DNA of 64,000 bases from Escherichia coli (GTDB taxonomy: Bacteria; Pseudomonadota; Gammaproteobacteria; Enterobacterales; Enterobacteriaceae): NCBI RefSeq assembly GCF_003334315.1, contig NZ_QOWR01000003.1; one strand, 5' to 3'. Shown here piece after piece: positions 21,103-26,926 of the stretch. The notes under the pieces were generated by a model. It was not told where the DNA came from. It searched no databases and saw only the letters and a program-made list of their open reading frames with translations. Every line of letters starts with the position of its first letter. Within the stretch, counting starts at the first letter, position 1. The position numbers and the translations under genes were made by a program.

Positions 21103-22077
21103 ATGCAATACAACCCCTTAGGAAAAACCGACCTTCGCGTTTCCCGACTTTGCCTCGGCTGTATGACCTTTGGCGAGCCAGATCGCGGTAATCACGCATG
21201 GACACTGCCGGAAGAAAGCAGCCGTCCCATAATTAAACGTGCACTGGAAGGCGGCATAAATTTCTTTGATACCGCCAACAGTTATTCTGACGGCAGCAGC
21301 GAAGAGATCGTCGGTCGCGCACTGCGGGATTTCGCCCGTCGTGAAGACGTGGTCGTTGCGACCAAAGTGTTCCATCGCGTTGGTGATTTACCGGAAGGAT
21401 TATCCCGTGCGCAAATTTTGCGCTCTATCGACGACAGCCTGCGACGTCTCGGCATGGATTATGTCGATATCCTGCAAATTCATCGCTGGGATTACAACAC
21501 GCCGATCGAAGAGACGCTGGAAGCCCTCAACGACGTGGTAAAAGCCGGGAAAGCGCGTTATATCGGCGCGTCATCAATGCACGCTTCGCAGTTTGCTCAG
21601 GCACTGGAACTCCAAAAACAGCACGGCTGGGCGCAGTTTGTCAGTATGCAGGATCACTACAATCTGATTTATCGTGAAGAAGAGCGCGAGATGCTACCAC
21701 TGTGTTATCAGGAGGGCGTGGCGGTAATTCCATGGAGCCCGCTGGCAAGGGGCCGTCTGACGCGTCCGTGGGGAGAAACTACCGCACGACTGGTGTCTGA
21801 TGAGGTGGGGAAAAATCTCTATAAAGAAAGCGATGAAAATGACGCGCAGATCGCAGAGCGGTTAACAGGCGTCAGTGAAGAACTGGGGGCGACACGAGCA
21901 CAAGTTGCGCTGGCCTGGTTGTTGAATAAACCGGGCATTGCCGCACCGATTATCGGAACTTCGCGCGAAGAACAGCTTGATGAGCTATTGAACGCGGTGG
22001 ATATCACTTTGAAGCCGGAACAGATTGCCGAACTGGAAACGCCGTATAAACCGCATCCTGTCGTAGGATTTAAATAA
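21103..22077 (+). CDS. yajO: Aldo-keto reductase YajO
   Basis: 324-aa product MQYNPLGKTDLRVSRLCLGCMTFG... from ATG at 21103; SD AGGAG lies inside the ERIC terminal repeat. Confidence 0.92.
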   Translation: MQYNPLGKTDLRVSRLCLGCMTFGEPDRGNHAWTLPEESSRPIIKRALEGGINFFDTANSYSDGSSEEIVGRALRDFARREDVVVATKVFHRVGDLPEGLSRAQILRSIDDSLRRLGMDYVDILQIHRWDYNTPIEETLEALNDVVKAGKARYIGASSMHASQFAQALELQKQHGWAQFVSMQDHYNLIYREEEREMLPLCYQEGVAVIPWSPLARGRLTRPWGETTARLVSDEVGKNLYKESDENDAQIAERLTGVSEELGATRAQVALAWLLNKPGIAAPIIGTSREEQLDELLNAVDITLKPEQIAELETPYKPHPVVGFK

Positions 22078-22085
22078 GAGTCCAG

Positions 22086-22118
22086 GCCTGATGAGACGTG
22101 ACAAGCGTCACATCAGGC
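22086..22118. repeat. REP-like palindrome
   Basis: GCCTGATGAGACG...CGTCACATCAGGC between the convergent yajO and pgpA 3' ends. Confidence 0.55.
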
Positions 22119-22130
22119 ATCGGTGCACAA

Positions 22131-22649
22131 CTACGACAGAATACCCAGCGGCCAGTGATGACCGATAAAATACAGGATGCCTGCGGAAATCACCCCGGCG
22201 ACAATATCGTCGATCATGATCCCCATGCCGCCATGCACATTGCGATCAAACCAGCGGATCGGCCACGGCTTCCACATATCCAGAATACGGAAAATCACAA
22301 ACCCGGCGGCAACCCACTGCCAGTCATTGGTCGGCAGCGCCATGAGCGTGATCCACATACCAATAAATTCGTCCCAGACAATGCTGCCATGATCGTGCAC
22401 ACCCATGTCTTTCGCCGTTTGATGACAAAGATAGACGCCGATACAGATCCCCAGCATCACCACCAGCGAATAGAGCTGCCAGGGCAAAAAGGTCATCAGA
22501 TACCAGAACGGAATCGCTGCCAGCGATCCCATCGTCCCAGGAATGATCGGGCTTAATCCACTTCCGAATCCGACAGCAAGCAGATGCCACGGATTACTCA
22601 TCTTCAGGCGACTTTTCGCGACATCTTTATGGCGTGGCAAAATGGTCAT
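22131..22649 (-). CDS. pgpA: Phosphatidylglycerophosphatase A
   Basis: 172-aa membrane protein; start overlaps thiL 3' end by 23 nt. Confidence 0.94.
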
Positions 22650-23604
22650 ATCCTTTCCAGTCTAACGTGACAGGTTCGCCGTCACGAACAAAACAGAGTC
22701 CTTCTATATCGGCGGTCATTTGCCCGATACAGGTAAATGGTACGCCCAGATGTCCCAAAGCGACATCCAGCGCGCCACGGTTCAGTTCCGGCACCGTGAA
22801 ACACAACTCGTAATCTTCGCCACCAGAGAGCGCCCAGCGCAGCGCCTGTTCCGGTTCAACGTGGCGAGAAAGTGCGTCAGAAAACGGCAGCAATGCCAGG
22901 CCAATACGTGCGCCGCAGTCGCTGGCTTTCACGATATGCCCGAGATCGGAAATCAAACCGTCAGAGAGATCGATGGCTGAATTTGCCAGATCGCGCAGTG
23001 CCTGCCCCTGTAAAATACGCGGCGATGGACGGAGATGACGTTTGATCAAGTAGTCCGCATCTTTAGCATCGGCAACCTGCAAACGGTTTTGCAAAATCGC
23101 CAGCCCGGCGGCGCTATCGCCCGGTGTACCGGTCACATAGATCCAGTCACCCGGTTTCGCCCCAGAGCGCGTTAAGGCTCGTCCCATCGGAACAAAGCCG
23201 TGGATACCCAACGTCATTGATAATGGCCCACGCGTGGTATCGCCGCCAATGAGTTGCATATCGTAATAATTGAGAAGATCAAACAAACTGTCGCTGAAGG
23301 ACTCAAGCCACGCTTCGTCTACGTCCGGTAAGGTTAATGCCAGCGTCAGCCAGGCCGGATCGGCCCCCATCGCTGCCAGATCGCTTAGGTTCACCGCCAG
23401 TGCTTTATAAGCCAGATCAGCAGGATCGATATCAGGGAGGAAGTGGTTGCCCGCCACCAGCGTATCAGTGCTGATCGCCAGGGTCTGTTTCTCGGGGATA
23501 TTGAGAAGAGCGCAATCGTCGCCGATGCCCAGTTCGACATCAAGACGAGAACTTCTTACACGGTCAAAATAACGGGCAATCAGGGAGAACTCGCCACATG
23601 CCAT
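22627..23604 (-). CDS. thiL: Thiamine-monophosphate kinase
   Basis: 325-aa [19 protein letters not shown]...; AIR-synthase-like fold family; downstream of nusB. Confidence 0.95.
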
Positions 23605-23681
23605 ACGTTATGCCTCAGCAGGTAAAAAAGAAAAGGCCGGCGATCATGGAACAGTCTTCCGTGAATCTACCGGCCTGGATA

Positions 23682-24101
23682 TTACTTTTTGTTAGGGCGA
23701 ATCACAGGTGCTGCTTTATCGAGTACGCCGTTGACGAACTTATGGCTGTCTTCTGCGCCGAACGATTTCGCCAGTTCGATCGCTTCGTTAATGGCCACTT
23801 TGTATGGCACATCGCTACGTTTAGACAGTTCGTACAGCGCAATGCGCAGTACTGCTTTTTCTACCTGTCCCAGTTCTTCCAGCAGGCGGGACAGGTATGG
23901 CTTCATCAGTCCGTCGAGGTATGCGGTATTAGTCGCCACCCCGGCCAGCAGCTCACGGAAGTACAGGACGTCAACGTCTTTTACATCCTGTTCAGCCAGG
24001 AACTGGTATTCAACATCAGCGATGTCGTTCTGGGACAACTGCCAGGAGTAGAGCGCCTGGACGGCACACTCACGAGCGCGGCGACGAGCAGCAGGTTTCA
24101 C
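23682..24101 (-). CDS. nusB: Transcription antitermination factor NusB
   Basis: 139-aa [26 protein letters not shown]... Confidence 0.96.
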
Positions 24102-24120
24102 GGATTTCCCCTTACTAATT

Positions 24121-24591
24121 TCAGGCCTTGATGGCTTTCAATACATTAATCATTTCAAGCGCGGTCAGTGCAGCTTCTGCACCTTTGTTGCCAGCTTTGG
24201 TGCCAGCACGTTCGATCGCTTGTTCAATGCTTTCAGTGGTCAGAACCCCAAAAGCAACCGGAATTTCGCTGTCCTGGGCAACATGCGCCAGGCCGTTGCT
24301 TGCACCACCAGCGACATATTCAAAATGGGCAGTGCCACCACGAATAACCGTACCCAGCGCAATCACCGCGTCGTATTTACCGGTTTTAGCCAGTGCACCC
24401 GCCGCCAGCGGCAGCTCATAGGCACCAGGCACCCAAACAACGGTAATGTTTTCATCTTTTACCTGACCGATACGTTTCAGTGCATCAATTGCACCTTCCA
24501 GCAGGCTGTCATTGATAAAGTTGTTGAAACGCGCGATGGTGATGGCGACGCGAGCGTCCGGGGTAGCAACGTTAGCTTCAATAATGTTCAT
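24121..24591 (-). CDS. ribH: 6,7-dimethyl-8-ribityllumazine synthase
   Basis: 156-aa product [23 protein letters not shown]... from ATG (rc of 24589-24591) with AGGAAG SD; ORF track extension rejected. Confidence 0.93.
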
Positions 24592-24679
24592 TTTCTTCCT
24601 TCGGGTTCGAGTATGGCCCCGCAGGGGGGCGGATTTTAGCATAATATTTTGTGCGCTGCTTCCCTTTCGAGCCGGGAGA

Positions 24680-25783
24680 TCATGCACCCACTAAATGCAG
24701 GCAAACATCCGGGCCTACATGACGTATCTCTTTGAATTTAAATTGGGGGGCGTCGGCTAATTTCTCAAGCCCTGGCAGCGAGCATAATCCACGGGCGTCG
24801 CTGCCTAATAGTTTAGGTGCGATATAGACAATCAGCTCATCGACTAAACCCGCCTGCAGCAATGCGCCAGCGAGCGTTGGCCCCGCTTCCACCCAGATGC
24901 TGTTAATTTGCTGTTTACCCAGTTGCATCATCAGTACAACCAGATCCAGATGACCTTTATGCGCTGGAATCAGCAAGGTACGCACCGTTTCCGGCCACTC
25001 ACGAGAATCTTCCTGCGTACGCGCGAACCAGGTTTCGCCGGGCTGCTGCACAATGCGATGTACCGGCGTCACGCGATTTTGGCTATCAATCACAATACGT
25101 ATCGGCTGACGGAGATTTTGTTGCGGATAGAGCGCCTGAGTTTGTTCATCCAGTTCAGACCAACGCACCGTTAAGGCAGGATCATCCGCCAGCACCGTGG
25201 CGCTGCTGGTTAAAATGGCATGACTTTGCGCGCGCAGTAGTTGTACATCACGCCGCGCCTGGGGCGAAGTGATCCACTGGCTTTCGCCGCTCGCCATCGC
25301 CGTGCGACCATCAAGCGATGCGCCAAGTTTTAACTGAATATAAGGAAAGCCGGTGCGCATCCGCTTGAGAAAGCCTTTATTCAATTGCTCGGCTTCACTC
25401 ATCATCAGGCCGTGGCTGACGTCAATGCCAGCCTGTTGCAGACGGTAAAGTCCACGCCCAGCGACCTGCGGGTTAGGATCCTGCATCGAGGCAACCACGC
25501 GCGCTACGCCAGCGGCGATGAGTGCGTCACAGCACGGTGGCGTACGACCATGATGGCTACAGGGTTCGAGTGTGACATAGGCGGTCGCACCTTTGGCTTT
25601 TTCACCCGCCATACGCAACGCGTGTACTTCGGCATGTGGTTCACCCGCACGTTGGTGGTAACCTTCACCGACAATTTCGCCATCTTTGACAATGACGCAC
25701 CCGACATTCGGGTTGGGATGCGTGGTAAAACGTCCTCGTTGCGCCAGCTTTAGCGCCCGCGCCATGTAATACTCGTCCTGCAC
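24680..25783 (-). CDS. ribD: Bifunctional riboflavin biosynthesis deaminase/reductase RibD
   Basis: 367-aa ORF with cytidine-deaminase-type zinc motif (HAEV...[11 protein letters not shown]). Confidence 0.96.
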
Positions 25784-25786
25784 GGC

Positions 25787-26272
<486 letters not shown>

Positions 26273-26386
26273 TTACCCTGAACTGACGATACAACAAAGG
26301 CGCAACGCTTTTGAGATAAAGGATCGATGCTTTCGCTGCTTTTACCCTCTACCATTAGGCTAATTGCGACGAGAAAGGGACGACCT

Positions 26387-26926
26387 ATGAATACTAACGT
26401 TTTTCGACTGCTCCTGCTGGGAAGCCTGTTCAGCCTTAGCGCCTGTGTGCAGCAAAGTGAAGTGCGACAGATGAAACACAGCGTCAGCACGCTGAACCAG
26501 GAGATGACGCAACTCAATCAAGAAACAGTCAAAATCACTCAGCAAAACAGGCTGAATGCAAAATCCAGCAGTGGGGTTTACCTTCTGCCTGGAGCGAAAA
26601 CACCGGCAAGACTGGAAAGCCAGATCGGTACTTTACGTATGTCGCTGGTGAATATTACGCCTGATACAGATGGCACCACCCTGACGCTACGTATTCAGGG
26701 CGAGTCGAATGATCCCTTGCCCGCATTCAGCGGAACTGTTGAATATGGGCAAATTCAGGGAACAATAGACAACTTTCAGGAAATCAATGTGCAGAATCAA
26801 TTGATTAATGCCCCTGCCAGCGTCCTTGCCCCCAGCGATGTTGATATTCCGTTACAGTTAAAGGGGATTTCTGTGGATCAATTAGGCTTTGTACGTATCC
26901 ACGACATTCAACCTGTTATGCATTAA
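26387..26926 (+). CDS. yajI: Lipoprotein YajI
   Basis: 179-aa product from ATG at 26387; signal peptide with lipobox LSAC. Confidence 0.85.
   Translation: MNTNVFRLLLLGSLFSLSACVQQSEVRQMKHSVSTLNQEMTQLNQETVKITQQNRLNAKSSSGVYLLPGAKTPARLESQIGTLRMSLVNITPDTDGTTLTLRIQGESNDPLPAFSGTVEYGQIQGTIDNFQEINVQNQLINAPASVLAPSDVDIPLQLKGISVDQLGFVRIHDIQPVMH

Follow-up and report, generated by a model that had tools for sequence, protein, structure and literature searches.

The 23 nt that thiL and pgpA share in the window (the whole 64,000-nt stretch of Escherichia coli DNA analysed here) are, to judge from the conservation of both reading frames, a genuine gene overlap and not a gene-calling artefact. The account of this site held to be rather probable as a whole is that of an ordinary gene junction with a ribosome-binding site embedded in thiL, in which a TTG codon would be the ancestral pgpA start and the annotated ATG an extra one, and which would be served by read-through transcripts and, in K-12, by a short-leader transcript as well.

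The family identities of both gene products are secure. ThiL scores 644.6 bits against NF004350 (cut-off 441) and 396.4 bits against TIGR01379 (cut-off 184), in both cases as a full-length match at equivalog level, and its C-terminus in the translated open reading frame reads ...DHFATP. PgpA matches NF008288, also at equivalog level, with 330.7 bits (cut-off 226) over residues 7–170, and NusB matches TIGR01951 with 151.8 bits. The minus-strand gene order in the window is nrdR-ribD-ribH(ribE)-nusB-thiL-pgpA, and this cluster is convergent with yajO and dxs (Table 1); a search for Rfam families at 21900–26500 returned none. The 1.6-kb thiL-pgpA region was found in 5425 of 5426 complete E. coli genomes, several of them 100% identical to the window; among the 5428 matches one lies on a plasmid-labelled record, and one genome has two copies. 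The 3' half of thiL (22400–22900) has only about 95–96% identity to most E. coli genomes and at least 99% in just 156 of 5425, the exact 62-nt junction being present in 2175. Compared with K-12, identity amounts to 97.9% for thiL, 99.8% for nusB, 99.6% for ribE, and 99.2% for pgpA. These values suggest that the thiL allele of the window is mosaic or recombinant. Between the convergent pgpA and yajO, at 22086–22118, there is an imperfect, REP-like inverted repeat, GCCTGATGTGACG...CGTCTCATCAGGC, without a clear T-tract, which may stabilise the 3' ends of both genes or act as their terminator.

Table 1. Features of the nusB-thiL-pgpA region, in coordinates of the window.
Feature	Position	Strand	Basis or remarks
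pgpA CDS as annotated (phosphatidylglycerophosphatase A, 172 aa)	22131..22649	-	ORF list, NCBIfam NF008288, RefSeq; ATG 22649-22647
In-frame ATG (Met17), rejected start	22599..22601	-	Leu in 47/80 loci; coding periodicity in the 8 codons before
thiL/pgpA overlap as annotated	22627..22649	-	thiL Y319(part)-D-H-F-A-T-P-stop; pgpA M1-H7 + part of K8
thiL CDS (thiamine-phosphate kinase, 325 aa)	22627..23604	-	ORF list, NCBIfam NF004350, RefSeq; stop TAA 22629-22627
TTG, pgpA codon 4, alternative start candidate (14-nt overlap)	22638..22640	-	in 73/80 loci
Shine-Dalgarno-like AAGGA	22651..22655	-	thiL codons K317-G318; 1 nt before ATG, 10 nt before TTG
Position homologous to the K-12 transcription start	22657..22658	-	8-9 nt upstream of pgpA ATG; transferred via K-12 locus L082
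Candidate -10 region TGTCACGTTAGACT	22659..22672	-	has TAGACT 22664-22659 and TGT+CACGTT 22672-22664
Intrinsic-terminator-like element	23623..23676	-	hairpin 23676-23634, then U-tract UUUUCUUUUUU at 23633-23623
nusB CDS (139 aa), 77 nt upstream of thiL	23682..24101	-	ORF list, RefSeq, TIGR01951

The overlap length of 23 nt, as given in an earlier sequence-only reading of this DNA, is borne out by the open reading frames, by the RefSeq annotation of an identical genome, and by that of K-12 MG1655, where thiL (435634–436611) and pgpA (436589–437107) overlap identically. The pgpA frame lies one base downstream of the thiL frame, and the ATG of pgpA is composed of bases 2 and 3 of thiL Tyr319 (TAT) and the first base of Asp320. 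By estimate, an in-frame start would arise by chance within seven codons with a probability of about 10% for ATG alone and about 29% for ATG, GTG, or TTG. Since this chance is not low, the junctions of 80 relatives were compared, namely the closest 80 of 312, comprising Enterobacteriaceae and three Serratia. In all 80 loci the junction is tight, the extremes being an overlap of 29 nt and a gap of 1 nt. In the Serratia loci the pgpA ATG is located 1 nt past the thiL stop, at the equivalent of residue 8, so that the junction is tight and free of overlap. In the aligned junctions the pgpA-frame codons straight after the thiL stop encode KD(V/I)AKSRL; mean entropies over residues 9–16 are 0.28 bits at first, 0.20 at second, and 1.23 at third codon positions, and D9, A11, R14, and L15 of PgpA do not vary in any of the 80 loci. 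It is because coding conservation in the pgpA frame sets in right after the thiL stop that the overlap is regarded as real. Both frames behave as coding frames of an overlapping pair, the thiL frame keeping KGYDHF and the pgpA frame being periodic. Such double coding is cheap here, because the KGYDHF of ThiL and its variable tail of one to six residues meet the poorly conserved first seven residues of PgpA.

Long overlaps are a familiar class of start-site mis-annotation, and pgpA does possess an in-frame ATG at codon 17 (22601–22599), 25 nt past the thiL stop, from which it could begin without any true overlap; the NCBIfam profile, too, leaves residues 1–6 uncovered. The same profile, however, begins at residue 7 and thus upstream of Met17, and Serratia pgpA starts at the residue-8 equivalent. 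Codon 17 specifies leucine (CTG, TTG, CTA, CTC, or TTA) in 47 of the 80 loci, and residues 9–16, which a start at Met17 would leave out, are conserved with third-position wobble, four of them being the invariant ones named above. As the codons after the thiL stop are conserved and Met17 is not, the pgpA start is to be sought upstream, inside thiL; a start at Met17 is effectively refuted by the conservation among the 80 loci and is considered extremely improbable.

Only two possible starts, the ATG and the TTG at codon 4, are available in the pgpA frame of the window ahead of residue 8 and after the last in-frame stop, and AAGGA is the sole Shine–Dalgarno-like motif at the pgpA start. A Shine–Dalgarno spacing of 1 nt is reportedly non-functional, and one of 10 nt is said to be long but usable. 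ATG is intrinsically a far stronger initiator than TTG and is favoured by gene callers. Among the closest 80 of 312 relatives both codons are found in 40 loci, TTG alone in 33, ATG alone in four, and neither in three, which are those from Serratia, where the ATG lies further downstream. Among the 33 loci devoid of the ATG there is mostly no in-frame start other than the TTG ahead of the conserved KDVAKSRL, and all seven TTG-less loci have another ATG. The ATT at codon 3, ideally spaced from the Shine–Dalgarno-like motif, was rejected as a start, as this codon is ACT in 27 of the 80 loci.

The two candidate starts differ in how the thiL codons that create them have evolved. The remaining thiL and pgpA codons of the same loci, with TTT at 60%, TAT at 63%, and GGR at 32%, served as the codon-usage control. 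The thiL codon for Phe322, which contains the base creating the TTG, is TTT in 73 of 80 loci (91% versus 60%), and that for Gly318, which creates the Shine–Dalgarno-like motif, is GGA or GGG, likewise in 73 of 80 (91% versus 32%). The codon for Tyr319, containing the base that creates the ATG, is TAT in 44 of 74 loci (59% versus 63%), which equals the background. Binomial P values for codon usage ignore relatedness, and this was allowed for by Fitch parsimony on a neighbour-joining (NJ) tree of thiL. Over 58 conserved two-fold-degenerate thiL columns the median number of third-base changes was 11 (range 2–21), compared with 10 at Tyr319 and three each at Phe322 and Lys317. Phe322 belongs to the lowest five of these 58 sites, where Phe F13 is equally constrained, and the GGR fraction of Gly318 (0.91) is the highest of 27 conserved glycine columns. 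Gains and losses of the pgpA ATG in the 80 loci number about ten, which corresponds to the neutral rate. By these comparisons the synonymous thiL sites making AAGGR appear clearly constrained and the site making TTG suggestively so, whereas the site making the ATG, as far as codon usage and parsimony tell, drifts neutrally.

Because the AAGGR and TTG sites are constrained and the ATG site is neutral, the TTG, with its 14-nt overlap, is probably the ancestral, family-wide start of pgpA; the ATG would be an additional or alternative start in E. coli, including the window. A fuller version of this reading can be put forward tentatively, as plausible rather than probable: the maintained start would be AAGGR-N10-TTG, written into the wobble positions of thiL Lys317, Gly318, and Phe322, with a neutral ATG, with PgpA beginning at codon 4 or having mixed N-termini, and with a K-12 transcript of the short-leader type that is lineage-specific. 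A literature search for N-terminal sequencing, Ribo-RET, or TetRP data that would show the pgpA start codon directly found none, the TetRP supplement being without a pgpA entry. The sequence-only reading had put the start at the ATG inside the last thiL codons. A position upstream of the thiL stop agrees with the conservation; the exact ATG fits less well, with AAGGA only 1 nt away and with its neutral drift.

A transcription start also lies in this part of thiL. By dRNA-seq, Romero et al. (2014, PMC4681348) identified in K-12 a TAP-dependent primary 5' end (class I) within thiL, at position 435804 of U00096.2, which was confirmed by RLM-RT-PCR in K-12 and BW25113, and they classified pgpA as one of five 'leaderless' E. 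coli mRNAs, defined by a leader of <10 nt. The leader is tabulated there as 8 nt (PMC4681348, Table S3, Fig. S1) and was recounted here as 9 nt, because the gene 'Left' coordinate in that paper is 0-based. This 5' end speaks for a real internal pgpA promoter in K-12, which may be specific to that lineage. In the window the homologous start would be one of the two G's at 22658/22657, directly 5' of AAAGGA. True leaderless initiation requires a 5'-terminal AUG. The published start is 8 nt (9 as recounted) before the ATG, and this leader carries the Shine–Dalgarno-like AAGGA; the pgpA mRNA is not leaderless in the strict sense.

The model derived from that work (Romero et al. 2014) has pgpA translated from the ATG on a leaderless or very-short-leader mRNA made mainly from its own promoter, the overlap being a by-product and thiL translation irrelevant. 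The mapped primary 5' end is its main support, even though the leader measures 8–9 nt and not 0. As to the promoter, TAGACT (22664–22659), named the −10 box by Romero et al. (PMC4681348), is present in the window, yet it abuts the mapped K-12 transcription start and is therefore badly placed as a −10. K-12 has in addition an extended −10, TGTTACATT, 5–6 nt from the start, which on grounds of this spacing would be the better-placed −10. Its counterpart in the window, TGTCACGTT, keeps TG, A2, and T6 and has lost T1 and A4, owing to two changes (TACATT>CACGTT) that are silent in thiL. From TTAGACT through +60 of pgpA the window and K-12 are identical, and the sampled E. coli are invariant from GGAAAGGATATG through +50. 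Both −10 candidates are nevertheless polymorphic within E. coli. Exact matches to the 62-mer among 5426 E. coli genomes number 2175 for the window type and 1088 for the K-12 type, TACATT being confined to the latter allele (1088/5426 genomes), and the HS-type allele has TTTGACT, by which TAGACT is destroyed. In Salmonella and Citrobacter both elements are missing, and a consensus sigma-70 scan gave no match inside thiL in either the window or K-12. Expression of pgpA mainly from its own promoter is, on balance, held to be unlikely. The −10 region as such (loci L082–L088) reads TGTTACATTAGACT in K-12, TGTCACGTTAGACT in the window and in O157:H7, and TGTCACGTTTGACT in HS, where the variant also turns a ThiL leucine into phenylalanine; TGTTACGTTAGACT also occurs.

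As for transcription from further upstream, the co-directional genes ribD-ribH(ribE)-nusB-thiL-pgpA stand in a conserved order. One paper quotes ribE-nusB-thiL-pgpA as an operon of E. coli (PMC8743547), and another places pgpA, partly overlapping thiL, at the distal end of an operon of four genes (PMC11143247). In V. cholerae every junction from proB to pgpA, including that between thiL and pgpA, was found by RT-PCR to be co-transcribed (PMC5312566), and the order nusB-thiL-pgpA also occurs in P. aeruginosa and A. baumannii. Unlike thiL and pgpA, nusB and thiL do not overlap, and their 77-nt spacer contains a hairpin of −23 kcal/mol (z = −3.27 versus shuffles) followed by a U-tract. Nearly all of the 78 loci with an extractable spacer (Enterobacteriaceae and Serratia; spacers of L002–L081) have a GC-rich stem, mostly GGCCGG/CCGGCC, and then a T-rich run, while the inner-stem sequences vary. 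Judged by its sequence, the element looks like a putative intrinsic terminator or attenuator within the cited operon; its long loop is the reason why the terminator scan did not pick it up. With such an element after nusB, transcription of thiL-pgpA from the ribE/nusB promoters would need read-through. A literature search on a nusB terminator returned nothing relevant, and PMC4898720 was uninformative with regard to operon structure. In some species of Buttiauxella, Cedecea, Dryocola, Raoultella, and Enterobacter (L026, L048, L051, L054, L055, L059, and L074) the nusB-thiL spacers are enlarged to 97–207 nt and contain extra long hairpins, possibly small repeat elements that were inserted there. 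Within the 4.6-kb region a single consensus sigma-70-like site turned up, TCGAAA-18-TATTAT at 24670–24641 of the minus strand; it is situated in the ribD-ribH spacer upstream of ribH, where the promoter of ribE-nusB-thiL-pgpA would be expected, and is also present in K-12.

The geometry of the junction bears on a possible coupling of pgpA translation to that of thiL. According to the review by Brown and Wade (2025, PMC12548453), translational coupling is most efficient at spacings of −4 to +3 nt and drops faster with growing overlap than with growing distance, no coupling having been detected at −25 nt in the synthetic constructs of Tian and Salis; more than 80% of gene overlaps are shorter than 30 bp. 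The spacing at thiL-pgpA, −23 or −14 depending on the start, falls outside the efficient range. By analogy, the 23-nt overlap would be of a common length but not of a geometry favouring strong termination-reinitiation, 14 nt would be intermediate, and termination-reinitiation at this overlap length is expected to be weak. A search for a hairpin occluding the ribosome-binding site was negative, the 131-nt junction RNA folding no better than shuffles (z = +0.58), and coupling by unfolding would therefore be without an obvious substrate. The selectively maintained Shine–Dalgarno-like motif in thiL suggests, for its part, that pgpA has a ribosome-binding site of its own. Polarity, reporter, or Ribo-seq data on the thiL-pgpA junction were not found in the literature.

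These results bear on the sequence-only reading, in which a single nusB-thiL-pgpA message was thought to be co-translated, with a separate pgpA promoter named as what would speak against it. A single message is consistent with the cited operon and the co-directional genes, and less so with the terminator-like hairpin after nusB and the separate K-12 start; for K-12, a primary start such as a promoter of the kind named would give has been mapped 8–9 nt before the ATG (PMC4681348). Co-translation has the operon on its side, and against it the overlap length poor for coupling, the Shine–Dalgarno-like motif of pgpA, and the internal start of K-12. In its strict form, with initiation at the ATG on the nusB-thiL-pgpA message only and by coupling or termination-reinitiation, this view can point to co-directional, overlapping genes in a cited operon, to the V. 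cholerae RT-PCR (PMC5312566), and to the tight junction kept in all of the closest 80 of 312 relatives. It is, however, hard to reconcile with the K-12 primary start (PMC4681348), with a terminator-like hairpin parting nusB from thiL, with an efficiency that decays with overlap and is nil at −25 nt (PMC12548453), with a constrained motif that favours independent initiation, and with the loss of the ATG about ten times in relatives that kept pgpA. Strict coupling is accordingly held to be quite unlikely.

The preferred reading of a thiL-embedded ribosome-binding site can be worded as follows. AAGGA at Lys317–Gly318 of thiL would be the own ribosome-binding site of pgpA, too near (1 nt) to the annotated ATG and at a distance (10 nt) that suits the TTG at codon 4. 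Ribosomes would get to the pgpA start on read-through ribE-nusB-thiL-pgpA transcripts, on which the translation of thiL would keep the pgpA start region unfolded and might contribute to re-initiation. In K-12 at least, a second route would be the short-leader transcript that begins at the GG just before AAGGA. Because the coupling geometry is weak and the Shine–Dalgarno-like motif is constrained, the most economical model would be one of independent initiation on any transcript present, with thiL translation giving at most modest help.

Short co-directional overlaps are reportedly common in prokaryotic operons and are said to form 'spatially coupled ORFs'. The thiL-pgpA pair resembles the short co-directional overlaps reviewed in PMC12548453 in that the genes are adjacent on the same strand, the overlap is <30 bp, and the downstream Shine–Dalgarno motif resides inside the upstream coding sequence. 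It differs from the enriched overlap classes of −4, −1, and −8 by its spacing of −23 (or −14), from coupled short overlaps by a length at which coupling is reported to be low or nil (PMC12548453), and from pairs encoding subunits in that ThiL and PgpA are not known to belong to a common complex as subunits. The K-12 junction (b0417/b0418, operon ribE-nusB-thiL-pgpA) has the same 23-nt overlap as the window, which carries a different thiL 3' allele with TACATT>CACGTT in the best-placed −10. Like the leaderless or short-leader E. coli mRNAs of cI, tetR, and rhlB, that of K-12 pgpA has a primary 5' end that falls within the preceding gene, very close to the annotated start codon; unlike strictly leaderless mRNAs it has an 8–9-nt leader with AAGGA, and this 5' end is known from the K-12 allele.

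The overlap itself is already known: it is in every RefSeq annotation of E. coli, and it was stated in a paper of 2024 (PMC11143247). In that work the Keio pgpA deletion was re-made, because the allele takes out 20 nt of thiL (PMC11143247), a loss that fits the 23-nt annotation. The pgpA deletion was also the strongest low-thiamine-pyrophosphate (TPP) match in a genome-wide riboswitch-sensor screen, and the effect persisted with intact thiL and was rescued by plasmid-borne pgpA (PMC11143247). Together with the thiL-pgpA synteny in Gammaproteobacteria, this effect hints at a link between PgpA and thiamine metabolism.

Mildly new, and of the nature of an annotation refinement, would be that the ATG appears dispensable in evolution and that the start maintained seems to be a TTG lying 9 nt further downstream, whose Shine–Dalgarno motif is written into thiL wobble positions. 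If the TTG reading is true, the ATG of E. coli is one of about ten neutral TAT/TAC gains or losses at thiL Tyr319, and the 'leaderless' transcript of K-12 is a short-leader mRNA peculiar to its lineage, with a −10 that varies between E. coli strains. The significance hardly extends past annotation hygiene. In practice, deleting pgpA, as in the Keio allele, costs 20 nt of the essential thiL, and the annotated N-terminus of PgpA, MTILPRH..., may be three residues too long, which is relevant to tagging and to expression constructs. More generally, a gene overlap alone is not evidence of translational coupling, since an internal transcription start, an embedded Shine–Dalgarno motif, and a terminator-like hairpin, as found around thiL, complicate the picture.
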